From a virus (taxonomy: Duplodnaviria > Heunggongvirae > Uroviricota > Caudoviricetes): a DNA stretch of 15,323 bases. The first letter of the stretch is position 1; every line of letters starts with the position of its first letter. Below the pieces are notes generated by a model. It ran no database searches. It had not been told where the DNA came from and was given only the letters and a program-made list of their open reading frames with translations. Positions 1 through 15,323 of the stretch are shown in pieces. Made by a program: the position numbers and the translations under genes. The stretch spans positions 1-15,323 of the IMG/VR virus record IMGVR_UViG_2609459790_000002; one strand, 5' to 3'.

Positions 1-8
1 GGCCCGCG

Positions 9-58
<50 letters not shown>

Positions 59-681
59 ATCCCCGCATAGTCATCATCACAGATTTCAATGACATCACCT
101 GGTACATGGCGAAGCCCTTCGGCACCCACGCTGAAGTCCACGGTCTGCGTTTCCAGCAGTTCCGTTTTAATCAGCCACAGCCCGGCTCGGTGCGCCTGCC
201 CCCGCCTGGTACAGCCAAAGGCATCCATCTTCGTGACGTTACGACCGTAACGGGCAATGGCCTGCGTGTCCTCCACAAGCTCTGTCGCCGTCTCCCAGCC
301 GTTATCCGGGTCAATCCAGTTCACCTCAACGGCATTATGGCGGTCCTTCAGGGCGCTGAAGCTGTAGCGGAACGGCGCGCCATCATCCGGCATCACCACA
401 TTACTGCGGTTATAGGTCCACACCTTATCTGATGGTCGGTCCTGCACGAACGTCAGCGTCTGCCCGTTCCATACCGGCATACAGCGCATCGCCGAGCAGA
501 AATCACTGAGAACATCCCACGCCTTACGCTGTGTGGTCAGCCAGGCATTACAGGTGATGCGCGGCTCCGTGCCGCCAAAACCGTCCGGCACCGACTGGTC
601 GCAACACTGGCCGATGACATACAGCGCCCATTTATCCACATCTGCCGCACCAAGACGTTTACCCATGCCGTAGCGCGGGTG
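59..681 (-). pseudogene. Internal fragment of a lambda J-like tail tip / host-specificity protein (no start, no stop in window)
   Basis: Minus-strand frame whose codons end at plus coordinates divisible by 3 is open from about 681 down to 59. Hand-translated segments: KRLGAADVDKWRLYVIGQCCDQSVPDGFGGTEPRITCNAWLTTQRKAWDVLSDFCSAMRCMPVWNGQTLTFVQDRPSDKVWTYNRSNVVMPDDGAPFRYS (361-660), NVTKMDAFGCTRRGQAHRAG (181-240), EGLRHVPGDVIEICDDDYAGISIG (59-130). I recognise this from memory as the central region of lambda gpJ. Absent from the ORF track because it has no stop codon. Confidence 0.65.
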
Positions 682-916
682 GCTGGAGATCTGTCTCGCT
701 GGCCTGCCGCAGTTCTTCAACTTCCCGGCGCAGCTTTTCGTTCTCAATTTCAGCATCCCTTTCGGCATACCATTTTATGACGGCGGCAGAATCATAAAGC
801 ACCTCATTACCCTTGCCACCGCCTCGCAGAACGGGCATTCCCTGTTCCTGCCAGTTCTGAATGGTACGGATACTCGCACCGAAAATGTCAGCCAGCTGCT
901 TTTTGTTGACTTCCAT
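659..916 (-). pseudogene. nohA: Terminase small subunit Nu1 homologue, truncated after about 79 conserved residues (Qin nohA/nohQ type)
   Basis: Track ORF MEVNKKQLADIFGASIRTIQNWQEQGMPVLRGGGKGNEVLYDSAAVIKWYAERDAEIENEKLRREVEELRQASETDLQP matches the lambda Nu1 N-terminus as I recall it (winged-helix DNA-binding part), then diverges into PALRHG-stop at about nt 680. ATG at 914-916 lies immediately downstream of cosB as in lambda. Confidence 0.8.
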
Positions 917-940
917 TGTTCATTCCACGGACAAAAACAG

Positions 941-1140
941 AGAAAGGAAACGACAAAGGCCAAAAAGCCCGCTTTCAGCACCTGTCGTTTCCTTTCTTTT
1001 CAGGGGGTATTTTAAATAAAAACATTAAGTTACGACGAAGAAGAACGGAAACACCTTAAACCGGAAAATTTTCATAAATAGCGAAAACCCGCGAGGTCGC
1101 CGCCCCGTAACCTGTCGGATCACCGGAAAGGACCCGTAAA
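941..1140 (-). other. Lambda-type cos site: cosB (R1, R2, R3 gpNu1 boxes) and cosN with the 12-nt cohesive-end sequence
   Basis: Minus strand reads GGGCGGCGACCT (plus 1094-1105), the lambda cohesive end. Flanked on one side by the CGTAACCTGTCGGATCACCGGAAAGGACCCGT lambda right-end sequence, on the other by CGCGGGTTTTCGCTATTTATGAAAATTTTCCGG. R3-like box at plus 1042-1054, R2-like 984-997, R1-like 941-954 (CGTTTCC(N)TTCT type). Recognised from memory of the lambda genome ends. Confidence 0.75.
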
Positions 1141-1304
1141 GTGATAATGATTATCATCTACATATCACAACGTGCGTGGAGGCCATCAAACCACGTCAAA
1201 TAATCAATTATGACGCAGGTATCGTATTAATTGATCTGCATCAACTTAACGTAAAAACAACTTCAGACAATACAAATCAGCGACACTGAATACGGGGCAA
1301 CCTC

Positions 1305-1538
1305 ATGTCAACGAAGAACAGAACCCGCAGAACAACAACCCGCAACATCCGCTTTCCTAACCAAATGATTGAACAAATTAACATCGCTCTTGAGCAAAAA
1401 GGGTCCGGGAATTTCTCAGCCTGGGTCATTGAAGCCTGCCGCCGGAGACTGTGCTCAGAAAAAAGAGTTTCTTCTGAAGCAAACAAAGAAAAGAGTGACA
1501 TTACTGAATTGCTCAGAAAACAGGTCAGACCAGATTGA
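1305..1538 (+). CDS. ynfO: Small basic prophage protein (YnfO-like), 77 aa
   Basis: ATG at 1305, first gene after cos; position matches the Qin gene order nohA-ynfO-ydfO. Arg/Thr-rich N-terminus. Symbol assigned by synteny and recollection, not by search. Confidence 0.55.
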   Translation: MSTKNRTRRTTTRNIRFPNQMIEQINIALEQKGSGNFSAWVIEACRRRLCSEKRVSSEANKEKSDITELLRKQVRPD

Positions 1539-1595
1539 AGCAATTTAGATAATCGTGCAGACTACGCCCCCTCATATCACATGGAAGGTTTATCT

Positions 1596-2006
1596 ATGGA
1601 TCAGGTAGTCATTTTTAAACAAATATTTGATAAAGTTCGAAACGATTTAAACTATCAATGGTTTTATTCTGAGCTAAAACGTCACAATGTCTCACATTAC
1701 ATTTACTATTTAGCCACAGAGAATGTTCATATTGTATTAAAAAATGATAATACAGTGTTATTAAAGGGCCTAAAAAACATTGTGTCTGTCAAATTTTCAA
1801 AGGATAGGCATCTTATAGAAACGACCTCTAATAAGCTGAAATCCAGAGAGATCACATTTCAGGAATACAGAAGAAACCTTGCTAAAGCAGGAGTTTTTCG
1901 GTGGGTTACAAATATCCACGAACAAAAAAGATATTACTATACCTTTGATAATTCATTACTATTTACTGAAAGCATCCAGAAAACTACACAGATCTTACCA
2001 CGCTAA
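1596..2006 (+). CDS. ydfO: DUF1398-family prophage protein (YdfO-like), 136 aa
   Basis: Track ORF 1581-2006. The ATG at 1596 has a GGAAGG SD 7 nt upstream (1584-1589) whereas 1581 has none, giving 136 aa. Synteny with Qin ydfO. Confidence 0.6.
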
Positions 2007-2157
2007 ACCATAACGTCCGGCTTCTCTCACTCCTGAGCCGGACTGCATTGGTTTAATAAAAACCATCAACAATTGTGATTTAGATATTCGGAACCATTCA
2101 AATATAACAAAACCCCGTAAAAACGAGGTTTATGGATAAATTTTATTATTGAATACA

Positions 2158-2334
2158 TCAGATTAAATTAATCTTGACATCATAGCTTTCAAGACCCGTC
2201 ATTTTTTCCCGTGCGGTAAACTGAATACTGGTAACTTCTTTCCCGGTCTTTTTCTTAAGTTCAATAATTTTTTTTGTTATATATTCAGAAATATCTGCTT
2301 CTGCTTTTGTTTTTAAGTTTTCAATATTCATCAT
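2158..2334 (-). CDS. gnsB: GnsA/GnsB-family small protein, 58 aa (missed by ORF track, under 60 aa)
   Basis: Hand translation of minus strand: MMNIENLKTKAEADISEYITKKIIELKKKTGKEVTSIQFTAREKMTGLESYDVKINLI, stop TGA at 2158-2160. AAGAGGAA SD 6 nt upstream of tandem ATG ATG (2329-2334). The FTAREKMTGLESYDVK core is the GnsA/GnsB signature as I recall it. Start could be the second ATG (2331). Confidence 0.7.
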   Translation of the reverse strand: MMNIENLKTKAEADISEYITKKIIELKKKTGKEVTSIQFTAREKMTGLESYDVKINLI

Positions 2335-2502
2335 TTCCTCTTTTAGTCTGTTATGACTTTCCAGTTACACAGTAAGTCGATTATATGGTGCAAACGTGTA
2401 AAAGATAAGATGAAACATCGCAATAATCAACATACGATAGTCTAAATTTTACACAAACAGACAAAGAGAATTTTCCTGAATTATCAATGCAATAGCATCA
2501 AA

Positions 2503-2733
2503 TCAACTCAAGAGCCTTATTGCTGCTTCCAGAATTTCTTCTGAAGTAACATGTCGATCCGCGGCTACATAAATGACTTTATGATCTCCGGTCAGAGATG
2601 GAAACCCTGCGGCCATTACAGTAAGGTGTGTTTTTTCGCCATTTGGATATTCACGCATGATGGTGTTAACTCCAGTCATCGCTGGCACTACCACTGCTGG
2701 TTCAGAGTTAAAAAAAACTATGATTTTTTTCAT
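2503..2733 (-). CDS. ynfN: Small hypothetical prophage protein (YnfN-like by position), 76 aa from ATG
   Basis: Track ORF 2503-2775 begins at a TTG; the first ATG is at 2731-2733 (MKKIIVFFNSEPAVVV...). Located between gnsB and cspI as ynfN is in Qin. Start codon is uncertain. Confidence 0.45.
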   Translation of the reverse strand: MKKIIVFFNSEPAVVVPAMTGVNTIMREYPNGEKTHLTVMAAGFPSLTGDHKVIYVAADRHVTSEEILEAAIRLLS

Positions 2734-3004
2734 GATGTTACCGTAGTATGTGAGTATCCATCGAATAGACACCAAGCAAAAAAGCTCCCGAAGGAGCCTT
2801 CATTTTCACTTTTTTAAATCCAACGACAGACGGCTGGCATTTAAGTATTGTGAAATATTATCAAATGTAATCATCATTGATTTACAAAAGATACATTTTG
2901 CCCCGAAAGGATTCATGTCAGAAACATCAAAAGATGATGTTCTATACTGGGAACCATGACAACACGGGCATCTAAAGTGAATATGGTTTGTAATATTGTC
3001 TACC

Positions 3005-3217
3005 TCAAAGCGCCACTACATGAACAGCGGCAGGACCTTTAGGTCCGTTCTCAATACCAAATTCAACTTCCTGATTCTCAGTTAATGTTTTGAAATCGTT
3101 GCTCTGAATTGCTGAGAAATGGACAAACACATCTTTGCTGCCATCTTTCGGCGTGATGAAACCAAAACCTTTTTCAGGGTTAAACCATTTCACTAAACCA
3201 GTCATTTTGTTAGACAT
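3005..3217 (-). CDS. cspI: Cold-shock protein, CspA family, 70 aa
   Basis: [70 protein letters not shown] carries RNP1 (KGFGFI) and RNP2 (VFVHF) motifs. AAGG SD 8 nt upstream of the ATG. Sequence and position match Qin cspI. Confidence 0.9.
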
Positions 3218-3579
3218 AATTATTACCTTTTGAAGAAATTAGCCCTTGGGCAGAATGGTCCGAAAAAAAATATCAGAGAGAAAAACCAACAAGGAAATCT
3301 CAAGAGGTACAAATAATAAAATTATAACAATGACTGCTTCAGATAAATTTGTAACAAACCAGAACACCATTAACGCATGATTAACCACCCATAGCAAGGA
3401 TTACTTTTGTAAAGAAAAACACAGCAATGAAAGAATAGCTTTATTTATTAATAAAACGTGTCATTCTGATTAAGACCTTTTATCTTACCCTTAAGATTTC
3501 AGGAATTTTGGCTCATGGAAGAGTCCTTTTTATTTAAATTTTACATTCCGCGATGTAAATGTTCCGATTTAATATTACC

Positions 3580-4603
<1,024 letters not shown>

Positions 4604-4607
<4 letters not shown>

Positions 4608-4915
4608 AGATATTTATGATGAGGACGCTCGTGCTTATTGGCAGGATTTTCAATCTTAAAGGAGTACTGATGCTGCAGATAAGACTCAACTTTTTCTGAC
4701 AATTTTTCTGCTACTTCCAGGAAGACTTGCCGGACGCTCCTTCTGGCTGCTGCCTCATAAAACTCCAGCGCAGCTCCTTCAACACGGTCCATGGCGACAT
4801 CCAGGTCAAAAATTTCACCGTCAAAGCGTTCTTTGTCCTGTAAGGCTACAGTTACCGTAACTTTATTCTCAAAATTACGGACTCCTTTCACAACCAGTTC
4901 ATAGTCTTGAGTCAT
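4604..4915 (-). CDS. ydfR: Lysis-cassette accessory protein (YdfR / DUF1327-like), 103 aa
   Basis: ATG at 4913-4915 with an AGGAGA SD 8 nt upstream. Sits between holin and endolysin as in Qin. Function unknown. Confidence 0.65.
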
Positions 4916-4919
4916 TGGA

Positions 4920-5135
4920 TTACTCTCCTCTCGCAGCCTTACGCCTGTCTTCTTTAATCTTGAAATAAAGATTTGTCAGATACGTCAGCAGGCCAAAAAC
5001 CAGGCTACCCAGCACACCGATTGCAGCCCACTGTGACGGAGTTACTTTATCGAGTAACTGCAATGCCCAGAAACCAGCATTACCCGCCGATGTGCCATAG
5101 GCAACACCTGTTGTTAACTTATCCATTGATTTCAT
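4920..5135 (-). CDS. essQ: Class II holin (phage 21 S-like) with dual-start motif, 71 aa
   Basis: [71 protein letters not shown] has two TM segments. Met1-Lys-Ser-Met4 is a holin/antiholin dual start. GGTGAGGA SD directly upstream of the ATG at 5133-5135. The track ORF extends to 5210 without SD support. Confidence 0.8.
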
Positions 5136-5354
5136 ATCCTCACCCCGATGTACACGGATGGTGCAATATGTTTGAAAAGATCGGAGTCTACGGGGTAGTT
5201 TTGACAGCACACGTTGTTCTCAACGGCGCTAAAAAAACATACACATTAAAAATGTGGGTAATTATTTTGAAAGAAAGTCATATATAAAATAATAATACGA
5301 GAAATGTTTTCATATTTAGTGTACTGTATACGGCCATTTATACAGGAAAAGCCT

Positions 5355-5525
5355 ATGTCAGAACGTAAAAACTCAAAATCACGCCGTAATTATCTCGTTA
5401 AATGTTCCTGCCCAAACTGCACCCAAGAGTCAGAACACAGTTTTTCAAGAGTACAAAAAGGTGCCCTTTTGATCTGCCCTCATTGCAACAAAGTATTCCA
5501 GACAAATCTTAAAGCTGTAGCCTGA
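5355..5525 (+). CDS. Small zinc-ribbon protein, 56 aa (CxxC...CxxC), possibly the Qin YnfU-type small protein
   Basis: MSERKNSKSRRNYLVKCSCPNCTQESEHSFSRVQKGALLICPHCNKVFQTNLKAVA has two CxxC pairs (CPNC, CPHC). AGGAAAA SD 8 nt upstream of the ATG at 5355. Track ORF 5304-5525 is the longer version. Confidence 0.5.
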   Translation: MSERKNSKSRRNYLVKCSCPNCTQESEHSFSRVQKGALLICPHCNKVFQTNLKAVA

Positions 5526-5577
5526 TTGATTTTATTAGTAACAAGTATTTTTTATATTTTAATAATATATTTAAAGC

Positions 5578-5607
5578 AGATAATAAAAAACCCGCCTGAG
5601 CGGGTTT
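5578..5607 (-). terminator. Rho-independent terminator (minus-strand oriented), between the Zn-ribbon ORF and cspB
   Basis: Stem AAACCCGC (5588-5595) / GCGGGTTT (5600-5607) with a 4-nt loop. On the minus strand it is followed by TTTTTTATTAT; the plus-strand side has a weaker U tract. Confidence 0.55.
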
Positions 5608-5888
5608 GAGATTGTGGTGCTTTTTGTGGGAGTCATCCACTTACGCACTTTGTTTTGCCATGCCAGCAGTTAGCTTCTGCTGTAAAACTATTCATGCAGC
5701 AAACCTGCACTTCACCACAATGGTTAGCATACTTTTCCTGATTAAGATTTTGCCAAATATGCTAGCCATTGTTTCATGTATTGGACCTCCTTACTTTTTA
5801 TTAAAGAGATCCAATATTCACTACTCTGTCCGTATCTCTACTCAGGCATCAGCCTTCTTCGTTATCGTATACAGACGAGCGATGAATT

Positions 5889-6104
5889 TTAATCAGTAAT
5901 GATGACATTTGCTGCTGCAGGACCTTTAGCACCACTCTCTATAGAGAAGGTAACCTTTTGACCTTCAAATAAGGTTCGATAATTATCATTCTGAATCGCA
6001 GAAAAATGCACAAACACATCTTTACTACCATCAACAGGAGAAATAAAGCCGAAACCTTTATCAGCGTTAAACCATTTTACTAAACCAGTCATTTTATTTG
6101 ACAT
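5889..6104 (-). CDS. cspB: Cold-shock protein CspB, 71 aa
   Basis: [71 protein letters not shown] with RNP1/RNP2 motifs. AAGGAA SD 7 nt upstream of the ATG at 6102-6104. Long AT-rich 5' leader region as in csp genes. Confidence 0.9.
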
Positions 6105-6404
6105 TCTACATTCCTTAACTTGAGCCTTTCGGCATAAATGGTTTGCATAACAGAAACGACTTCGTACTTAATTGGAGAGACTCAAAGAAGGAATAAGTGA
6201 ATAACACCTGAAATGAGAACTGCTTTAGTAAACTACTTCGTATATCGTCTGTTCTTCAAACCGACGCAATCATTAACGCATAGTTGAACATATGAAGCAA
6301 TGTTTATTTTAGACATCCAGCCATCTTCAACCCCATCAAAAAACTATAGCTTTCTTCAGGAACGTGTGTATAGTGCGCCAAGTTATCAGTATTAAGGAAT
6401 TTTT

Positions 6405-6617
6405 TTGTCCCGTAAAATGACAGGAATTGTCAAAACCTTTGACGGCAAAAGCGGCAAGGGTCTTATCACCCCATCCGATGGTCGTATCGATGTCCAGCTT
6501 CATGTTTCAGCGCTCAATCTCCGCGATGCAGAAGAAATTACCACCGGATTACGCGTGGAATTTTGCCGGATAAATGGTCTGCGTGGCCCTTCAGCTGCCA
6601 ATGTTTACCTTTCATGA
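6405..6617 (+). CDS. cspF: Cold-shock-protein-family paralogue CspF, 70 aa (TTG start)
   Basis: [70 protein letters not shown]. First codon is TTG at 6405 with an AAGGAA SD 5 nt upstream. Divergent from cspB. RNP motifs are degenerate, as in CspF/CspH. Confidence 0.85.
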
Positions 6618-6671
6618 GCTATATTAAAGCTTTAATTTCAGGCCCCATCGGATCACACATGGAGAGTTTTT

Positions 6672-6761
6672 ATGAATAACCCCGTCTGTCTTGATGACTG
6701 GTTGATTGGCTTTAAAAGCTTATGCTGTACTTTGGCCGTAATAGCTCTGCTAATAATATAA
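6672..6761 (+). CDS. Candidate 29-aa small hydrophobic protein (speculative)
   Basis: ATG at 6672 preceded by GGAGAG (6661-6666) with a 5-nt spacer. [29 protein letters not shown] ends in a hydrophobic stretch. Lies between cspF and the downstream terminator. No homology could be checked. Confidence 0.25.
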
Positions 6762-6907
6762 TAAGCAGACTCATTGTGTTTAGGGACATTGTACTGGAAG
6801 AAAACATTTTAAACATCAGGCAAATAACCAAGTCACCAGCTAAATAATAAGTTAACAGACATGAGTCCCGGGATGAGATTCAACATTACCATTGCCCCAT
6901 TTAAAGC

Positions 6908-6946
6908 ACAAAACCCGCTCATCAGCGGGTTTTCTACTTTTTCTTA
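6908..6946. terminator. Bidirectional rho-independent terminator (cspF terminator on plus strand; tR'-like on minus strand)
   Basis: Stem AAACCCGC (6911-6918) / GCGGGTTT (6925-6932) with a 6-nt loop. Plus strand continues TTTTCTACTTTTTCTT; minus strand continues TTTTGTGCTTT. Lies about 40-60 nt downstream of the predicted late promoter. Confidence 0.6.
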
Positions 6947-6978
6947 ACGTCGGGTATACAAAGCCCATCGTTGAAAAA

Positions 6979-7007
6979 ATTTTATCCATATTTTTTGAAA
7001 AATGCAA
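6979..7007 (-). promoter_or_regulatory. PR'-like sigma70 late promoter immediately downstream of Q (TTGCAT-N17-TAAAAT)
   Basis: On the minus strand: -35 TTGCAT (plus 7002-7007), 17-nt spacer, -10 TAAAAT (plus 6979-6984). Located 30-60 nt after the quuQ stop, the canonical place for the Q-modified late promoter in lambdoid phages. Confidence 0.5.
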
Positions 7008-7038
7008 ACATCATGTCGCCATCTTCAGCAAAAATCAT

Positions 7039-7791
7039 TTATCTCGTCACCTTCCTCAATTGCGCTTCCGCGTATGCTTCTTCCTGCCAGCACTTTGTTA
7101 CCAGTTTACCAATGACGTCCGCATACCCCTTATACCACTGATAATCGGTCAGGTCTGGTACCAGCTTCTGGACATGACGTCGTGCCAGCGTGGTCGGTAA
7201 ACGACTAAACCGGTTTCCATTACAACGCCCACAAATCTTATATACCGGTACGCCATGAAACCGGGTTCTTTTTTCATCCAGAACAATCCCTTTACCCTTA
7301 CACCCTCTGCACGCTGTGCTGGCTTCGCCCTTACCATGGCAATGCTGACATAGTTCCTTCACCCATTCTTCCTTGATTACAGATTCCCCGCGTCTGTAGT
7401 GTTTCACCACTTCGCGCAATACATTATAAAATCCCGTACCTGAACAATGCTCACAGCGAGCCTTACTTGCCGCAGACCTGGAGTAATCAGCAAAGGCAAA
7501 ACTCACGAGGTAAGGAATAATCTGTAACCGGATTTCTTCACTCAATTTGTTCAATGTCGGGTTATCCAGTGCCATCGCGTAATTTAGCAGGCCTTCAATC
7601 GCAAACTGAGGGTCCTGAACACCAACTTTTGCCAGAAATAAGGCCAACCCAAGTGGTGCTTTCGACTGCACCATCCCCTGCGCTGCCATTACATCCGTAA
7701 TTGTTAAACAACCGGTGCCTGTCGCTGGAGCGTCATCGCTCAATTTTGGAGATTTTGGGGAGTAATATTTTGGTAAGGCTTCAAGGTTCAT
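7039..7791 (-). CDS. quuQ: Late-gene antiterminator Q (phage 82/21-type) with four CxxCxGxG zinc-finger repeats, 250 aa
   Basis: ATG at 7789-7791 (MNLEALPKYY...) with a GGAG SD about 7 nt upstream. Track ORF extends to 7821 but would overlap the upstream gene by 17 nt. Contains CEHCSGTG, CQHCHGKG, CRGCKGKG, CGRCNGNR. Position between ydfU and the late promoter matches Q. Confidence 0.8.
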   Translation of the reverse strand: MNLEALPKYYSPKSPKLSDDAPATGTGCLTITDVMAAQGMVQSKAPLGLALFLAKVGVQDPQFAIEGLLNYAMALDNPTLNKLSEEIRLQIIPYLVSFAFADYSRSAASKARCEHCSGTGFYNVLREVVKHYRRGESVIKEEWVKELCQHCHGKGEASTACRGCKGKGIVLDEKRTRFHGVPVYKICGRCNGNRFSRLPTTLARRHVQKLVPDLTDYQWYKGYADVIGKLVTKCWQEEAYAEAQLRKVTR

Positions 7792-7804
7792 GCTCGTTCT
7801 CCAC

Positions 7805-8854
7805 TTACGCCAGTACGCCAATTGCCAGCGCGCGATCGATAAAACGAAATATCAGCTCCAGTTGGGAGCCATACTTATCTTCAAATGCCACTGTATCCGT
7901 ATGCAGCTCGTTGTGATGCTTTCTGCACAAAGGCAACACAAAGAGATCATGTGCTTTTGTTCCCATTCCGCCCTGCCCGTGACCAATCAGATGATGCGGA
8001 TCGTCGGCTGGCATACCGCAGCAAGCACACGGCTGTGTCTTAACCCAACGTGTGTATTTCTCCTTAACCCAGCGGCGACGTTTAGGCAGCTTCATGAAAG
8101 ATTCCGGAGACTCTGGATCAACGGTGATGCTTACCACCGTCTTTTCCTGTGGTGATTTTTGTTGCTGGTGGGCGTAAGGCAACGGTGCAAGATTTTTTGT
8201 GCGTTGTTTCAATATGCTGGTGGCGGTCTGCTCTCCCGGTACGATGTCGCTTTCGCGGTACACCGAGCAGATTTTTTCCGCTGGTAATCCCAGCGAACGA
8301 CGCGATACAGCCTCAGGTAGTGCATCCACCACCTGATTGCAGACCGCCCACCAGGATAATTCAGCCAAAGATAATTCCCGCTCCTGCGTACCGCTTATTG
8401 CGTGACGGATGACGTCAATCACCCATGCTGTCAGATTTTGTTGAGCAAGCAGCTCCAGTGATTCCGATGTCTGGTCACGCAGTTGGTTGTCGCAGTGCCA
8501 GCACAACACCATTGCGCCGGTACCATAACGGTGAATGACTGTTTCAGTGTGATGGTAATCGCCATTAGGCCACTGGCAGGATGTAACATGACGTAATAGC
8601 CAGTCGGACAATGCGCCAACGCCGCCAGCAGCACGAATCACCCGTTCGTTACTAAAAAACGGCAGCAATGTTTTGTCTTCCGCCAGCGGCTGGCGAACGG
8701 CAGGAACGACTCCGGATGGCAGATTACGCATGCTTTTTGGTTCCGGTTCCACCAGCACTCGAGGATTATGAAATATCTGTATGGATTCACGGCCCGGCTT
8801 AAGGACCACCAGCCCAAGCTCAGGCACCAGAACAGGTCTAAGTAATACCCGCAC
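7805..8854 (-). CDS. ydfU: DUF968-family prophage protein YdfU-like with C-terminal HNH-like Cys/His motif, 349 aa
   Basis: Chosen start is GTG at 8852-8854 with GGAGG 4 nt upstream, one nt after the TAA of the upstream ORF. Track ORF extends to 8893 (GTG, no SD); first ATG at 8731 has no SD. C-terminus has CACCGMPADDPHHLIGHGQGG...LCRKHHNELH. Confidence 0.65.
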   Translation of the reverse strand: MRVLLRPVLVPELGLVVLKPGRESIQIFHNPRVLVEPEPKSMRNLPSGVVPAVRQPLAEDKTLLPFFSNERVIRAAGGVGALSDWLLRHVTSCQWPNGDYHHTETVIHRYGTGAMVLCWHCDNQLRDQTSESLELLAQQNLTAWVIDVIRHAISGTQERELSLAELSWWAVCNQVVDALPEAVSRRSLGLPAEKICSVYRESDIVPGEQTATSILKQRTKNLAPLPYAHQQQKSPQEKTVVSITVDPESPESFMKLPKRRRWVKEKYTRWVKTQPCACCGMPADDPHHLIGHGQGGMGTKAHDLFVLPLCRKHHNELHTDTVAFEDKYGSQLELIFRFIDRALAIGVLA

Positions 8855-8855
8855 G

Positions 8856-9134
8856 TTACCTCCAGATCCGTTGCTGGAAAGTGCGGGACGCACGTGGTGG
8901 GCGTTCGGAATAAGGCAGCCTGACAGAGATTATCCAGTGCCGATAGTCGAGACTGAGAGCTTTCTTAACCTCGAACCCGCGCCTGCGGTAAGAATGAATC
9001 AGCCATTCGGCCTGTTCTGCAGTGCATGGAGGGTGCTGGAACCATTCAGACTTGAATGCGTGAGAATACCGCCCGTGCGTGCAGGCAAGAACGGGCGAAT
9101 TATCAGAATTGTAATATTTTGCGTTGCGTGCCAT
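8856..9134 (-). CDS. Hypothetical 92-aa prophage protein, translationally coupled to ydfU
   Basis: ATG at 9132-9134 with a GGAGAA SD 5 nt upstream. Its stop TAA (8856-8858) abuts the ydfU GTG. Protein MARNAKYYNSDNSPVLACTHGRYSHAFKSEWFQHPPC... is not recognised. Confidence 0.5.
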   Translation of the reverse strand: MARNAKYYNSDNSPVLACTHGRYSHAFKSEWFQHPPCTAEQAEWLIHSYRRRGFEVKKALSLDYRHWIISVRLPYSERPPRASRTFQQRIWR

Positions 9135-9200
9135 CGGTTTTCTCCGGTGGCACGGTGTTACTCAGCGGGAGTTCAGCCCCGCGCAAGATTGTAGATGAGT

Positions 9201-9452
9201 TTATTCTCCTGAAAAAGCAGAAAAGCCAGCTTTTATTCCGATCTCTTTCAATGCCTGTAATGAAGTGACAAACTCACCTTCGCGCAAGATAAATCCGTCC
9301 GTGACCCGAGCATCCACAAAATTAATTAACGCAGCCCCATTCTTTCGCAAACACATAATGCGGTAATGACTAACAAGATTTCCATTTTCAACGCACACAG
9401 CATAGAGGCCATCTTCACAAAAAATTTTACGCAGTTCTTCGATGTTCATCAT
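9201..9452 (-). CDS. rem: Small prophage protein Rem-like, 83 aa
   Basis: Tandem ATG ATG at 9447-9452 with a GGAAGGA SD 5 nt upstream. Its position immediately downstream of the relBE-hokD terminator matches rem in Qin. Identity by synteny and length only. Confidence 0.55.
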   Translation of the reverse strand: MMNIEELRKIFCEDGLYAVCVENGNLVSHYRIMCLRKNGAALINFVDARVTDGFILREGEFVTSLQALKEIGIKAGFSAFSGE

Positions 9453-9565
9453 CAGAATCCTTCCGGATAATTAGCTCTCCCCTTTAAGGGACCATCCCTC
9501 TTATCCCTGCGCGCTACTTAAGTATTTTTGATTCTATTCCGGCACCGTCCAGAACTTCAAACGCG

Positions 9566-9600
9566 TTGAAAATAAAAACAAAAACCCGCCGAAGCGGGTT
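9566..9600 (-). terminator. Rho-independent terminator of the relB-relE-hokD operon
   Basis: Stem AACCCGC (9583-9589) / GCGGGTT (9594-9600) with a CGAA loop. On the minus strand it is followed by TTTTTGTTTTTATTTT. About 68 nt downstream of the hokD stop. Confidence 0.65.
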
Positions 9601-9668
9601 AAGTGCGGGTGCGTTGAGGATGCCTGCCACATCAGAGGTGGCGAGGGATTTCTCCCCCGCCGGGTCTC

Positions 9669-9824
9669 TTACTCCTCAGGTTCGTAAGCTGTGAAGACAG
9701 CGACCTCCGTCTGGCCGGTTCGGATTCGTACCTCGCAGAGGTCTTTCCTCGTTACCAGTGCCGTCACTATGACGGTTAAACAGATGACGATCAGGGCGAT
9801 TAACATCGCCTTTTGCTGCTTCAT
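9669..9824 (-). CDS. hokD: Hok-family type I toxin HokD (RelF), 51 aa (missed by ORF track, under 60 aa)
   Basis: Hand translation: MKQQKAMLIALIVICLTVIVTALVTRKDLCEVRIRTGQTEVAVFTAYEPEE. ATG at 9822-9824 with an AGGAGA SD 8 nt upstream; TAA stop at 9669-9671. Hok signature TM helix and LCE motif; third gene of the relBE operon. Confidence 0.85.
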   Translation of the reverse strand: MKQQKAMLIALIVICLTVIVTALVTRKDLCEVRIRTGQTEVAVFTAYEPEE

Positions 9825-9895
9825 AGCCTGCTTCTCCTGTCAACGCAAAGCAGAAGTGTCACCTTCGGTGCGAAACAGAGATGTCATGCTTTGGT

Positions 9896-10183
9896 TCAGA
9901 GAATGCGTTTGACCGCCTCGCTATATACTTCCGAGCGTTCTCTTTTCCCAACAGAAATCACGAAAACGACAACTTTCTCGTCTATAACCTGGTATACAAG
10001 GCGATAGCCTGAAGACCGGAGCTTAATCTTGTAACAATCAGGCATACCACGGAGCTTGTTTGCTTCAATCCGGGGTGACTCAAGTACTTCAACCAGCTTC
10101 TTTTTCAACTGTTCACGTACCGTCGAGCCCAGCTTTCGCCATTCCTTTAGTGCCCGCTCGTCAAAATCCAGAAAATACGCCAT
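9896..10183 (-). CDS. relE: Type II toxin RelE (ribosome-dependent mRNA interferase), 95 aa
   Basis: MAYFLDFDERALKEWRKLGSTVREQLKKKLVEVLESPRIEANKLRGMPDCYKIKLRSSGYRLVYQVIDEKVVVFVISVGKRERSEVYSEAVKRIL is recognised as E. coli RelE. Its ATG overlaps the relB TGA (TGATG). Confidence 0.92.
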   Translation of the reverse strand: MAYFLDFDERALKEWRKLGSTVREQLKKKLVEVLESPRIEANKLRGMPDCYKIKLRSSGYRLVYQVIDEKVVVFVISVGKRERSEVYSEAVKRIL

Positions 10184-10422
10184 CAGAGTTCATCCAGCGT
10201 CACACGTACTGGCTTAGGATTACGAAGCCGTTCTTTCACTATCTCCACAAGTTCAGCATCTTCATCACTCAGGAGTGTCTGTTTGAACGGCAAGCGTTCA
10301 TTGTCAGCGATATACTCGAGCATGAGACGAAGCGCTTCAGAAGGAGTTACACCCATTTTTTCAAGCGCGGCGTAAGAACGCGCTTTAAGTTCATCGTCAA
10401 TACGCAGGTTAATGCTACCCAT
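10183..10422 (-). CDS. relB: Type II antitoxin RelB (RHH DNA-binding), 79 aa
   Basis: MGSINLRIDDELKARSYAALEKMGVTPSEALRLMLEYIADNERLPFKQTLLSDEDAELVEIVKERLRNPKPVRVTLDEL is recognised as E. coli RelB. AGAGGTG SD upstream of the ATG at 10420-10422. Confidence 0.92.
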   Translation of the reverse strand: MGSINLRIDDELKARSYAALEKMGVTPSEALRLMLEYIADNERLPFKQTLLSDEDAELVEIVKERLRNPKPVRVTLDEL

Positions 10423-10475
10423 GTCTTACACCTCTTGTAATTACAAATGTCATTACAAGTATCGCACTACAACAT
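10423..10475 (-). promoter_or_regulatory. relBE promoter/operator region (relO) with TTGTAAT-type repeats
   Basis: Directly upstream of relB: CTTGTAATTACAAATGTCATTACAAG contains inverted and direct TTGTAAT / ATTACAA repeats, consistent with the RelB-RelE-bound operator. Confidence 0.55.
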
Positions 10476-10571
10476 GCTTAGGGCAAGTCACGAAGGAAGT
10501 CAGAAAGTAGTCGTAAGAACGGTGATCACTGTCCGCTTTGTGCCAGAAGCGGATGTTACTTCTTGCATATT

Positions 10572-11483
10572 TCAATTTTCTTCTCCCCACAGCGGTGTAT
10601 CTCCTAACGCTTTAGCAATAAAATCAACAAAGCTGCGAACCTTGAAAGGAATACGGATCGCGCTGGGATAAACAGCCTGAATAGTAAGTTCAGTCGTCCG
10701 GTATGCTGGCAGCAGCTTTATCAGCTTGCCCTGCTTAATATGCTCGCCAAAAACAAAGTTGGGCCCGTAAGCAATGCCTGTTCCGGCCAGTACGGATTCA
10801 AGAAGCAACTGAATGTTATTGGCAGTCATACGGCATGGGCCTTCAATACTGTGCGGCCTGCCTTGTGCATCATAAATCGTCCAGTCTCCCGCTGAAACCG
10901 CCTGGCTGAACGCCAGTCGAGGCGCACGGGAAAGATCATCCGGCGTCTCTGGTGTGCCATGTTTTTTCAAATACTCCGGTGAAGCGCACAAAACCATCCT
11001 GCAAGGTGCCAGCCGCCGCGTAACCAGTGTCGGATCCTCAAAACGCCCAACTCGGATGGCAACATCGATTCGATTTTCGAGCAGATCGGCGTATTTATCC
11101 TCCAGTACAACGTCCAGACTGACCTCCGGAAATTGCTCCAGGTAGCGTGATACGATCCTACCAAGATGCATTGCACCGAAGGCGACCGGTGCTGCAACGC
11201 GAAGCAACCCCTTCGGTGTTTTCTGAACATCACTGGCTTCCCGGTTCGCATCCTCAAGAACCTCAAGAATAACTTTGCAACGTTCATAATACCGCTCACC
11301 GGCATCCGTCAGGCTAAGACGGCGTGTTGAACGCTGAAGAAGTCGTACATTTAGATCAGATTCTATAGCGCTGACATGCTTTCCTGCCATTGCAGCCGAA
11401 AGCTTAAAACGTCTCGCGGCGGCGGCGAAACTGCCTTCATCCACTGCCGCGATAAAAATCTGCATGCTGGTGAACCTGTCCAT
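10572..11483 (-). CDS. LysR-family transcriptional regulator (LTTR), 303 aa
   Basis: N-terminal wHTH signature MDRFTSMQIFIAAVDEGSFAAAARRFKLSAAMAGKHVSAIESDLNVRLLQRSTRRLSLTDAGERYY followed by a substrate-binding domain. Divergent from the adjacent hydrolase gene. Confidence 0.85.
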   Translation of the reverse strand: MDRFTSMQIFIAAVDEGSFAAAARRFKLSAAMAGKHVSAIESDLNVRLLQRSTRRLSLTDAGERYYERCKVILEVLEDANREASDVQKTPKGLLRVAAPVAFGAMHLGRIVSRYLEQFPEVSLDVVLEDKYADLLENRIDVAIRVGRFEDPTLVTRRLAPCRMVLCASPEYLKKHGTPETPDDLSRAPRLAFSQAVSAGDWTIYDAQGRPHSIEGPCRMTANNIQLLLESVLAGTGIAYGPNFVFGEHIKQGKLIKLLPAYRTTELTIQAVYPSAIRIPFKVRSFVDFIAKALGDTPLWGEEN

Positions 11484-11595
11484 AACTTACCACCATTCGA
11501 TAATCAGAGTATCGGCTGTCGACACAATTACGCTGATTATCATCACTCATGACAGCAATTACCATTACCTTAATGACATGAAGAGGCATGAGACG

Positions 11596-12756
11596 ATGAA
11601 AATTAAGGTGAATGGAACGGGTATCCACATTGAGCAACAGGGCAGCGGTGAAATTGCACTGGTATTTTTGCATTATTATGGCGGTTCATCCCGTACATGG
11701 GAGAGCGTGATAAGTCAGTTACCTGACCACTACCGCACAGTTGCAATCGACCACCGGGGCTGGGGGGGCTCAGACGCACCTAAATCAGGATACCGAATTG
11801 GTGACCTTGCTCGGGATGCCGAAGGGGTTATTTCAGCGCTTGAGCTTAAACGCTACATTCTTATTGGCCATTCGATGGGGGGAAAAGTTGCCCAACTGAT
11901 GGCGTCGCGTCGGCCTGCAGGTCTTGAAGGCCTGATGCTTATCGCTCCCTCTCCACCTTCACCTATGCGTCTCACGCCTGAGCAGCGCGATACGTTATCC
12001 AGCGCATATAACAGCCGCGAATCTGTCGGCTTTGTGATTGATAATGTCCTGACAGCGGGGGCACTAAGTTCTGCTCTGCGTGAACAGGTAATCGAGGACA
12101 GTTTGAGGGCCTCATCCGAGGCCAAAGAAGGCTGGCCTAATACGGCTATCGGCGAAGACATTACCCAGGAAGTGGCCTCAATTAATGTCCCTGTGACGGT
12201 CATTTCAGGGGAGTTGGATCGTGTAGACCTTCCGGCTACTCTGCAAAGAGAATTGCTGCCCCTTATTTCACATGCATCAATGTATATTATTCCAGACGTC
12301 GGACATCTCTTGCCTCTGGAGGCCCCTACAGAGGTCGCCAGCCACCTGTTAAAATTTACAGCCGCCATTGAAGGGGGGACAGCAGTCTACCATTCGCCTG
12401 TCGAAACGATAGCCGCGTTTGATGATGCTTTCAATGCAGGCAGGGTTGATGACCTGCTGGCTCTGTTCAGTAACCGTGCCACTATGAAAATGACTGATGG
12501 TGTGGTCATCGAAAGCGATCCTGAAAAGCTTCGGGACACTTTTTTGTCACTGACATCATCCCAGCCAGTTATCAGAAACCATATCCGCTCGATCCTCTCC
12601 GCCGGTGAAATTGCTCTGCTTATTATTGACTGGACTTTGACCATAACCACCAAGGATAGAACACTGCACGAAGAGTCCGGTACAGCAACGCAGGTGTTGT
12701 TGCGAAGCGTTGACGGAGGTTGGCGGCTGCTGATTTCAAATCCATCAGGAACGTAG
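11596..12756 (+). CDS. Alpha/beta-hydrolase fused to a C-terminal NTF2-like / SnoaL-like domain, 386 aa
   Basis: ATG at 11596 with an AAGAGG SD 9 nt upstream; earlier in-frame ATGs at 11464 and 11578 lack an SD and would overlap the LysR start. Nucleophile elbow GHSMGG, HRGWGGSD motif, His in PDVGHLLPLE. The C-terminal 115 aa (AAFDDAFNAGRVDDLLALFS...WRLLISNP) is NTF2/SnoaL-like. Confidence 0.8.
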   Translation: MKIKVNGTGIHIEQQGSGEIALVFLHYYGGSSRTWESVISQLPDHYRTVAIDHRGWGGSDAPKSGYRIGDLARDAEGVISALELKRYILIGHSMGGKVAQLMASRRPAGLEGLMLIAPSPPSPMRLTPEQRDTLSSAYNSRESVGFVIDNVLTAGALSSALREQVIEDSLRASSEAKEGWPNTAIGEDITQEVASINVPVTVISGELDRVDLPATLQRELLPLISHASMYIIPDVGHLLPLEAPTEVASHLLKFTAAIEGGTAVYHSPVETIAAFDDAFNAGRVDDLLALFSNRATMKMTDGVVIESDPEKLRDTFLSLTSSQPVIRNHIRSILSAGEIALLIIDWTLTITTKDRTLHEESGTATQVLLRSVDGGWRLLISNPSGT

Positions 12757-12936
12757 TGAGTTCAGTAAGAATAGCTTGCGCTAGCAATATCGCGTGGCTG
12801 CAGAGAGGTAAGTGACATCCGCCACCACCCGCATGCCGTTTTAAGGCATGCGGTAATAACGATGAGCGCAAGATTGCTGTTATGTCTTGCTGCTTTCGGA
12901 GCGCCTGCTTTTCGCTCTTAGCGGACATTAGCATAG

Positions 12937-14499
12937 GCTATTTACCATAACGCCTCATTACGCGCACCGCCCAGACTGACTCAGCGCGTTTCTGGCATAT
13001 CCCCGGTAAAACAAGTAACAAACCACCCGAAAATGAACACCAGAAACGCGACTTAAGAATCTACCCTATGAATGGATATGCACTCAACCGAATCGATCTT
13101 GGTTTCAATCTTTTTTATCGGGATCAGGCTTCTTTTTAGGTAACTTCGGGGGCTTAACTTGCTGATGACTTTGCGTTCGGCGCGTAAGCCAGGGATGGTC
13201 AGCTTTAGGTTTAACATAGTATTTTGAGCGTAAATCAATACGGGCATTATCCACTCGTTCATGGACACTCTTTTCATCATCCAGTGGTATAGGCTCCGGG
13301 CCATCAACATACTTTTCCCAGCCCAGCGCTTTCCCGTCATACAGAACGTTAATTTCACCGTCAAAGTTCTCGCATACAGTAACAACCGAATGCCTAAGTC
13401 GATATCCCCGGCCCTCACTGCGTACCTGAAACGCACTGCTTTTGTACTGGAAAGTGAGATTTTTAGACAGAACGCGCTTCGCCTGTAGGCTGAAGATATA
13501 ACCCAGTTCCTCTTCAGAATGGTGCACATCAAGATGAGCATTATCAGTAGTACGAGGCGACGTAGCGAACCGGTTGTTATAGGCTTCAATAAAGGTCGGC
13601 AACCATGCATTTGCTGTTTCAATATCACTGATATTCTGAAGCCGCATTTCTTTGACCAGCCTGTCCTGTAGTGTCTGATTGGCGCGCTCTACCCGCCCTT
13701 TTGCCTGCGGGCTGTTGGCATGGATTGGCTCGATGCCCAGTGTCTTTATCGCACGAGTGAACTGGGTCAGCTCACCTTCCCGCTCTGGGTTATTTACCCT
13801 GAATATACTGTGTCTATCAGAGTAGAGAGCGAGCGGTACGCCATGATCATTAAGGTAACCCCGGAGGGTTTCCATGTAAGCCCGGGTTGTTTCAGCAGGC
13901 ACAAAACGCAACGCCATCAACGCACTGGTGGCATCATCAATGAAAACGATCAGTGTACATCTGGGGCCTCGATTTTCAAACCAGTCATGAGGTGAGCCAT
14001 CAATCTGGATCAGTTCACCGTAAGATGGTCGTCGCATGCGGCGTTGATATATACGGGCAATTTTACGACGGCGTTCACGCCATAACCCCTCTTCTATCAT
14101 CCACTTTCTGAGAGTTTCAACGGATAAAGATAAACCGTGTATCTCGCGCAATTTTTCGCACGCAAACGTAGGTCCAAAATCAGCGTAACGGCCTTTGAGG
14201 AGTGAAATTACTGTTGCTCTGAATTCAGTAGAAAAGGAATTATTAGGACGCTTTCCACGTCGGTGGGAAACCAGACCAGAAGGCCCTTCATTTCTATACC
14301 GTTGCACCAGACGTTTAACCTGCCGAATAGAAATGCCAATGCGTGCCGCAGCTTGTTCCTGAATAATCTGAAGTCGGTGGAGTTCCTTATGACTCATCGT
14401 AACAGTCTCTTTGATCATGAAAAATCCCCCAGAGAATTGTCTGGGGACATTTTAGAATGGTTCAAAGGGGACATTACAGCTTGGTGTTAACAATAGCCT
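12937..14499 (-). mobile_element. Insertion sequence carrying the 437-aa DDE transposase; terminal inverted repeats not resolved (ends approximate)
   Basis: Single transposase gene with about 80-170 nt flanks. The only candidate terminal match found by eye is AGGCTATT (12937-12944) against AATAGCCT (14492-14499), which is at chance level. Boundaries are therefore provisional. Confidence 0.35.
13105..14418 (-). CDS. DDE transposase with rve integrase-core domain (IS481/ISNCY-like), 437 aa
   Basis: N-terminal HTH (GISIRQVKRLVQRYRNEGPSGLVSHRRGKRP), DDE-type core (LIQIDGSPHDW..., LALYSDRHSIF, ...RVERANQTLQ) and a Lys/Pro-rich basic tail. ATG at 14416-14418 with a GGGGGA SD. Family assignment is from motif recollection only. 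Confidence 0.8.
   Translation of the reverse strand: MIKETVTMSHKELHRLQIIQEQAAARIGISIRQVKRLVQRYRNEGPSGLVSHRRGKRPNNSFSTEFRATVISLLKGRYADFGPTFACEKLREIHGLSLSVETLRKWMIEEGLWRERRRKIARIYQRRMRRPSYGELIQIDGSPHDWFENRGPRCTLIVFIDDATSALMALRFVPAETTRAYMETLRGYLNDHGVPLALYSDRHSIFRVNNPEREGELTQFTRAIKTLGIEPIHANSPQAKGRVERANQTLQDRLVKEMRLQNISDIETANAWLPTFIEAYNNRFATSPRTTDNAHLDVHHSEEELGYIFSLQAKRVLSKNLTFQYKSSAFQVRSEGRGYRLRHSVVTVCENFDGEINVLYDGKALGWEKYVDGPEPIPLDDEKSVHERVDNARIDLRSKYYVKPKADHPWLTRRTQSHQQVKPPKLPKKKPDPDKKD

Positions 14500-14797: not shown

Positions 14798-15323
<526 letters not shown>

Follow-up and report, generated by a model that had tools for sequence, protein, structure and literature searches.

A lambda-type cos site in a deletion variant of the cryptic prophage Qin of Escherichia coli

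Gene content of the Qin remnant

The stretch of DNA analysed here, which we call the window, comprises 15,323 nucleotides of an IMG/VR virus record (IMGVR_UViG_2609459790_000002). It carries a complete lambda-type, "complex" cos site on the minus strand at 941-1140 with the subsites cosQ, cosN, I2, R3, I1, R2 and R1. To the left of cos lie a truncated gene for the terminase small subunit Nu1 and an internal fragment of the tail-tip gene J, and to the right follow genes in the order known from Qin, which as a whole runs pinQ-tfaQ ... cos-ynfO-ydfO-gnsB-ynfN-cspI-rzpQ-rrrQ-essQ-cspB-cspF-ydfT-ydfU-rem-hokD-relEB-ydfV. Window positions 680-10550 are collinear with Qin of MG1655 at 99.86% identity, and positions 46-10550 are collinear at 99.96% identity with the Qin region of strain BUCT2930, which adjoins ydfJ. 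Judged from sequence comparison, the window is thus the Qin cryptic lambdoid prophage of E. coli, integrated at ydfJ, in a deletion variant that fuses Nu1 codon 79 to J codon 281. The ydfJ junction lies outside the window and the location at ydfJ is read from the relatives; the window also stops short of the integrase end of the element. Of 5426 complete E. coli genomes, at least 37 share this Nu1-J fusion, BUCT2930 being the one most like the window. The BUCT2930 chromosome matches window 1-3000 in one place only, while other genomes with this Qin variant do so in up to nine places.

The truncated Nu1 open reading frame (659-916, minus strand, ATG at 916) encodes 85 amino acids. Residues 1-78, including the winged-helix DNA-binding part, are those of lambda except for A75T, and are followed by seven unrelated out-of-frame residues and a stop. 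The Pfam domain Phage_Nu1 matched this frame with E=1.4e-48 over profile positions 1-81 of 164, and the corresponding segment of BUCT2930 is annotated by PGAP as a terminase small subunit pseudogene. The deletion junction itself is located at 679-680, where the sequence passes from the equivalent of lambda bp 427 (Nu1 codon 79) directly into codon 281 of J, and the missing DNA is equivalent to lambda 428-16346 (about 15.9 kb). Lost with it are the remainder of Nu1, the genes A, W, B through FII and Z through I, and J up to codon 280. What remains of J (46-684, minus strand) corresponds to lambda J residues 281-493 with 96.7% identity by tblastn and ends at the window edge; PGAP annotates it in BUCT2930 as a pseudogene of "host specificity protein J". 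An earlier note on this DNA described the prophage as having lost terminase and all morphogenesis genes. This holds for gene A and the head genes, which are absent, and for the truncated Nu1, but "all" slightly overstates the loss, since relatives keep a central J fragment (residues 281-710), a remnant of the side tail fibre gene and an intact tfaQ. In BUCT2930 a second deletion has removed lom, the final part of J and the larger portion of the side tail fibre gene; the stf remnant, intact tfaQ and pinQ are left.

Three segments of the window depart from BUCT2930 or from Qin. Positions 1-45 hold a run of about 38 C in place of genuine J sequence; BUCT2930 is normal there and the segment had no match in E. 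coli genomes. The run looks like a sequencing or assembly artefact at a contig end (a poly-G/poly-C tail) and not like biology. At 10551-12906 a segment of 2356 bp stands where Qin has a 975-bp segment with flxA; none of the 5426 complete E. coli genomes contains it. Its sequence agrees at 99.3% identity with the Klebsiella michiganensis plasmid pLH71-A, and it encodes a LysR-family regulator (10572-11483, minus strand) and an alpha/beta-hydrolase of 430 aa with a SnoaL-like tail (11464-12756, plus strand), a gene pair that in other genomes is cargo of CbtA/CbeA-type islands. Finally, an IS has inserted at the right end of the window, beside the open reading frame of an ISNCY-family transposase at 13105-14418; positions 14798-15323 encode, on the minus strand, the C-terminal part of its DDE_Tnp_1 (IS5/IS4-type) transposase.

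Subsites of cos and their comparison with lambda

Lambda and the window share a homologous block of 789 bp, in which lambda 48141-48502 followed by 1-427 corresponds to window 1467-680, with 98.2% identity in a pairwise alignment and without rearrangement. The match to the lambda ends is homology and not chance. On the minus strand lambda bp p corresponds to window position 1106-p for p≤136 and to 1107-p for p≥138, and at the right end of lambda bp q corresponds to 1106+(48502-q). Order and orientation of all subsites are the same as in lambda, and from about lambda 48167 through bp 52, a stretch that takes in cosQ, cosN and I2, the two sequences are identical.

The packaging-termination subsite cosQ (GGGTCCT; 1129-1135, minus strand), which equals lambda 48473-48479 (coordinates reportedly those of Wieczorek and Feiss 2001), agrees with lambda in sequence and in its distance to cosN in both the pairwise and the multiple alignment. 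In general, cosQ is a conserved site of 7 bp (PMC4669245). With cosN defined as in PMC9026076, this subsite occupies 1092-1107 on the minus strand and consists of the 12-nt cohesive end GGGCGGCGACCT at 1094-1105 plus two flanking bp on each side. There is a single exact copy of GGGCGGCGACCT in the whole window, its flanks are identical to lambda, and mapping to lambda places the nick sites at 1105/1106 on the top strand and 1093/1094 on the bottom strand. The I2 spacer (lambda bp 18-50; extent from PMC4856287), which sets the critical distance from cosN to cosB, lies at 1056-1088 (minus strand) and equals that of lambda in sequence and length.

Within cos, the differences from lambda all lie in cosB and are five in number, namely C53T, A73G, T102C, one base fewer at bp 137, and C151T. 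The first of these, at window 1053, is the one change in R3 (lambda bp 50-65; 1041-1056, minus strand), the critical TerS-binding site. The spacer between R3 and R2 (lambda bp 66-108; 998-1040, minus strand) carries A73G (1033) and T102C (1004); it holds the IHF site I1, which has been placed between these two boxes (PMC4669245). The I1 segment proper, lambda bp 74-101, is identical and the distance from R3 to R2 is unchanged, so that I1 appears to be preserved. Also unchanged is the spacing between cosN and R3, which is the critical one (PMC9026076). R2 (lambda bp 109-124; 982-997), a TerS site on the plus strand and hence inverted relative to R3 and R1, is identical to lambda. The R2-R1 spacer is one base shorter, and the accessory TerS site R1 (lambda bp 151-166; 941-956, minus strand) is altered in its first base only (window 956). 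The R-box core CGTTTCCKTTCT has three matches in the window, all of them within cos and in the lambda arrangement (1042-1053, minus; 986-997, plus; 941-952, minus), and none of 200 shuffled sequences contained three matches. The adjacent N-terminus of Nu1 is identical to lambda for 74 residues. The earlier note had called this an apparently intact lambda-type cos with cosN, three R boxes and lambda end sequences, and our comparison bears this out: the segment 941-1140 spans R1 to cosQ exactly and, aligned to lambda, neither cosN nor the R boxes carry a substitution that appears disruptive.

Beyond cosQ, the homology to the lambda right end (lambda 48141-48502; 1106-1467, minus strand) overlaps the 5′ part of ynfO (DUF3950; 1305-1538, plus strand). 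The first ~160 nt of ynfO (1305-1467) are identical to the unannotated right end of lambda (48141-48300) and the similarity then stops, which indicates a mosaic boundary inside ynfO, with lambda holding only its 5′ remnant.

Natural alleles, commonness and recombination

The cosB differences raise the question whether cos might be a dead relic, in which C53T, the shortened R2-R1 spacer or C151T abolishes terminase binding. R3 is the most mutation-sensitive of the R boxes (PMC9026076), the changed base lies inside it (bp 50-65), and lambda has a C at the corresponding position of R1 and R2 as well, hence in all three R boxes. However, the segment of R3 in contact with TerS as seen by NMR is bp 55-63, and the genetically important positions are bp 56, 58 and 59 (Murialdo and Feiss, PMC9026076; Feiss et al. 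2015, PMC4669245). At each of these positions the window retains the lambda base, C53T falling outside the contact segment, while R1, which carries C151T, is only accessory (PMC4669245).

Further evidence came from a multiple alignment of cos from the window, lambda, K-12 Qin, the K-12 prophage DLP12 and ten lambda-like phages. T53, G73 and C102 are found together in the phages 2H10, phiSTEC1575-Stx2k, PhiR29_1 and Stx1_112808 as well as in DLP12; both A73G and T102C occur in seven of the ten phages. The one-base-shorter R2-R1 spacer is the common state, being present in all ten other phages compared and also in K-12 Qin and DLP12, so that reference lambda is the outlier. T151 was found in 2H10 and phiSTEC1575-Stx2k, and these two phages combine all five alleles and differ from the window only at bp 134 within lambda bp 1-200. 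In contrast to the window both are complete, with full terminase and morphogenesis genes, and they show several differences upstream of cosQ on the right-end flank. A phage with the exact 216-bp cos of the window was not found, the best matches being 98.1-98.6% identical. The prefix "Lambda_" in the name of 2H10 is in keeping with how Mathieu et al. 2020 (PMC6969025) named the coliphages they cultured, although 2H10 itself does not appear in their text, and the records of the PhiR phages give propagation hosts.

The terminases encoded by these phages are informative as well. Nu1 residues 1-69 of 2H10, phiSTEC1575-Stx2k, PhiR29_1 and Stx1_112808 are identical to those of lambda, and over the first 100 residues the four differ from lambda by A75T only, or by S70L and A75T in the case of PhiR29_1. 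The recognition helix (residues 17-24) and the wing (residues 31-39) thus lie within the stretch that is the same as in lambda. A lambda-type DNA-binding domain would accordingly seem to work naturally on this cosB allele. C53T as an inactivating change was rejected, since it is carried by phages with Nu1 residues 1-69 identical to those of lambda; its neutrality is read from natural phage alleles only, and we found no mutational data for bp 53 in the literature. Since the cosB alleles of the window are present in isolated phages with a lambda-like Nu1, cutting of the Qin cos by the terminase of a lambda-specificity helper is likely, and we consider a dead site very unlikely.

Contrary to what the earlier note had implied, the retention of such a site does not appear unusual. 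A 216-bp cos query had matches in 4592 of 5426 complete E. coli genomes (85%), with a median of two places per genome and truncated copies among them, and the cos sites of defective K-12 prophages have already been published. The DLP12 cos, which lies upstream of nohD and also shares the short spacer with the window, has been described together with its role in recombination with lambda (PMC3945230; PMC545071). The cos upstream of nohA in K-12 Qin occupies the same chromosomal locus with the same gene order (tfaQ ... cos, ynfO, ydfO, gnsB, cspI, lysis genes, Q). PGAP leaves cos unannotated in every E. coli genome among the matches listed for the cos query. The cos in Qin is therefore real, ordinary and already known, with nothing new in kind, and the Nu1-J junction is no more than a particular decay allele.

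To the left of cos, Qin at ydfJ exists in at least three independent deletion variants. In NCTC9040 (locus L017, 8380-11640) Nu1, part of A, W and part of the portal gene are kept (Nu1-A'-W-portal'), in K-12 (locus L002, 4886-6368) a 189-aa NohA is joined to stfQ, and in the window Nu1 breaks off at codon 79 and J follows from codon 281 on (Nu1(1-78)-J(281-)). Despite their different end-points, all three variants keep cos and everything to the right of it.

Between the window and K-12 Qin we counted 14 differences across 680-10550. Ten of these fall within the 280 bp of 774-1053, which cover the 5′ part of Nu1 and R1 through R3, and four within the other ~9.6 kb, corresponding to a divergence of about 3.6% versus 0.04%. 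The R3 alleles differ as well, K-12 Qin having G54A where the window has C53T. From this uneven distribution it would follow that the cosB/Nu1 segment must have been swapped by recombination with another lambdoid sequence in one of the two lineages. As proof of cutting at cos this patch was rejected: to the right of R3 the window, lambda and K-12 Qin are identical, the right boundary of the patch falls in this sequence and is not locatable, and hence the patch is not attributable to cos cutting.

Packaging from a lone prophage cos

The cos of the window differs from that of lambda in its setting: it sits in a prophage remnant without the terminase large subunit or head genes, and it is a single chromosomal copy instead of a concatemer junction. 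Sternberg and Weisberg are said to have described in 1975 that packaging from a lone cos gives doc particles, and Espion and colleagues reportedly rescued the Qin late region together with cos into lambda qin phages in 1983; our literature search on lambda qin hybrids, on nohA, cos and Qin, and on doc particles found nothing usable. For a prophage cos, Feiss et al. 2015 (PMC4669245) described that the terminase of an infecting phage starts at the site and encapsidates the adjacent bacterial DNA, that the motor stalls once the head is full, leaving a tailless and non-infectious particle, and that alternatively a downstream crossover gives a recombinant phage. Termination requires a downstream cosQ and cosN (PMC4669245, PMC4856287). 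Of the two ends created by cutting, Complex I shields the one with cosB, and nucleases have access to the one with cosQ (PMC4856287). In crosses between lambda and DLP12 the recombinant junctions cluster beside cos (PMC3945230).

Applied to the window, these findings suggest the following course of events. [quoted passage not shown] As Complex I it would then remain bound to the cosB end and move toward lower window coordinates, taking up DNA in the order Nu1', J', stf', tfaQ, pinQ and ydfK, followed by ydfJ and host genes. Without a downstream cosQ and cosN the head would fill, the motor would stall, and the particle would remain tailless and non-infectious, while the free cosQ-side end would be accessible to exonucleases and to recombination. 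The window contains a single cos and ends 1.1 kb to the left of it, so that a second cos may be present outside the window, 38-51 kb downstream in the source genome. The realistic outputs would thus be a few wasted proheads and recombinants between phage and prophage (marker rescue, mosaicism around cos), and not transduction of neighbouring host DNA. The cos itself probably owes its survival to decay deletions whose end-points chanced to lie on its left, and to a segment that would be young and renewed time and again by recombination with lambdoid DNA entering the cell, and not to selection.

The earlier note had proposed that a helper could cut and package this cos and thereby mobilise neighbouring DNA. 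The first part is likely to stand, as the site is intact by all available sequence criteria. The second part does not fit the stalled, tailless particles of Feiss et al. 2015 and the single cos in the window and in BUCT2930. If a lone cos did give infectious particles, about 45 kb of chromosomal DNA on the left side of Qin (ydfJ, ydfI, dcp, dgcZ, eamA and beyond) could be moved in this way, but what is known of lambda packaging argues against it.

A stronger form of mobilisation would be that cos is kept by selection as a hitch-hiking device, with Qin or the flanking chromosome being a cos-type satellite, similar to a PICI or a cosmid, that is transferred by lambda-type helpers. Satellites that exploit lambda-like helpers by means of a cos exist (PMC6739421, PMC9026076), and Gram-negative cos-type PICIs and cosmids resemble the locus in having a cos without a terminase of their own and in relying on a lambda-like helper (PMC9026076). 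The retention of cos in all three Qin deletion variants could be read in the same way, and integrase and excisionase of the BUCT2930-type Qin are apparently intact. However, the cos is a single one and the BUCT2930 element of about 22 kb is below the packageable size for lambda. PICIs moreover have a private cosB, the TerS-redirecting protein Rpp, and induced excision and replication, none of which were seen in the window or in annotated relatives: the cosB of the window is of the lambda type and, being the helper's own, offers no packaging advantage, the neighbouring gene is the truncated Nu1, and neither an rpp-like gene nor a replication module is annotated in BUCT2930 or K-12 Qin. Selection for the retention of cos was also rejected, as cos shows no conservation beyond that of the flanks, which are without function (identity to lambda is about 98% throughout the 789-bp block), and truncated copies without cosB occur in other genomes. 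Together with the stalled, non-infectious particles predicted by published work (PMC4669245), this makes a satellite very unlikely indeed.

Another way in which the locus might matter is by acting against superinfecting phages, either with cos as a decoy that wastes proheads or with the 85-aa Nu1 fragment poisoning the helper terminase or occupying cosB, loosely like Rpp. The Nu1 frame does keep its start codon and the first 78 residues, the Rpp proteins of PICIs have a TerS-like DNA-binding domain (PMC9026076), and fewer viable progeny result when packaging starts at prophage cos sites (Feiss et al. 2015, PMC4669245). But one chromosomal cos per genome copy would use only one to few proheads per cell, in line with the one to four packageable passive prophages per cell given by Feiss et al. 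2015 (PMC4669245). The Nu1 fragment furthermore sits at the distal end of the late operon, where synthesis would have to await Q-dependent late transcription, and its truncation point is not conserved, K-12 and NCTC9040 having longer and different forms of Nu1. We regard an anti-phage role as exceedingly improbable. It is hardly less improbable that cos and Nu1 codons 1-78 are jointly active, with cos being cut upon infection while the DNA-binding fragment is expressed from the Qin late operon, and with the joint effect being either interference with helper packaging (Rpp-like or dominant-negative) or a programmed entry point for recombination that feeds Qin genes into phages and refreshes the prophage, the ten of 14 differences within 280 bp being the footprint.

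Overall, we consider it highly probable that this is the ordinary, complete lambda-type cos of Qin, which can be cleaved by a helper and from which, as a lone cos, packaging would stall without productive transfer. Its meaning beyond correct annotation is small: it shows that a cos of lambda specificity is still present in this Qin deletion variant. Lambda-type phages may lose a few proheads at the Qin cos in such strains and may recombine there. Feiss et al. 2015 (PMC4669245) state that E. coli C was chosen as indicator because it lacks lambda cosN and holds hardly any DNA of defective lambda-like prophages, so as to prevent recombination with such DNA, and phage work would likewise need a cos-free indicator strain to avoid recombination at a prophage cos.
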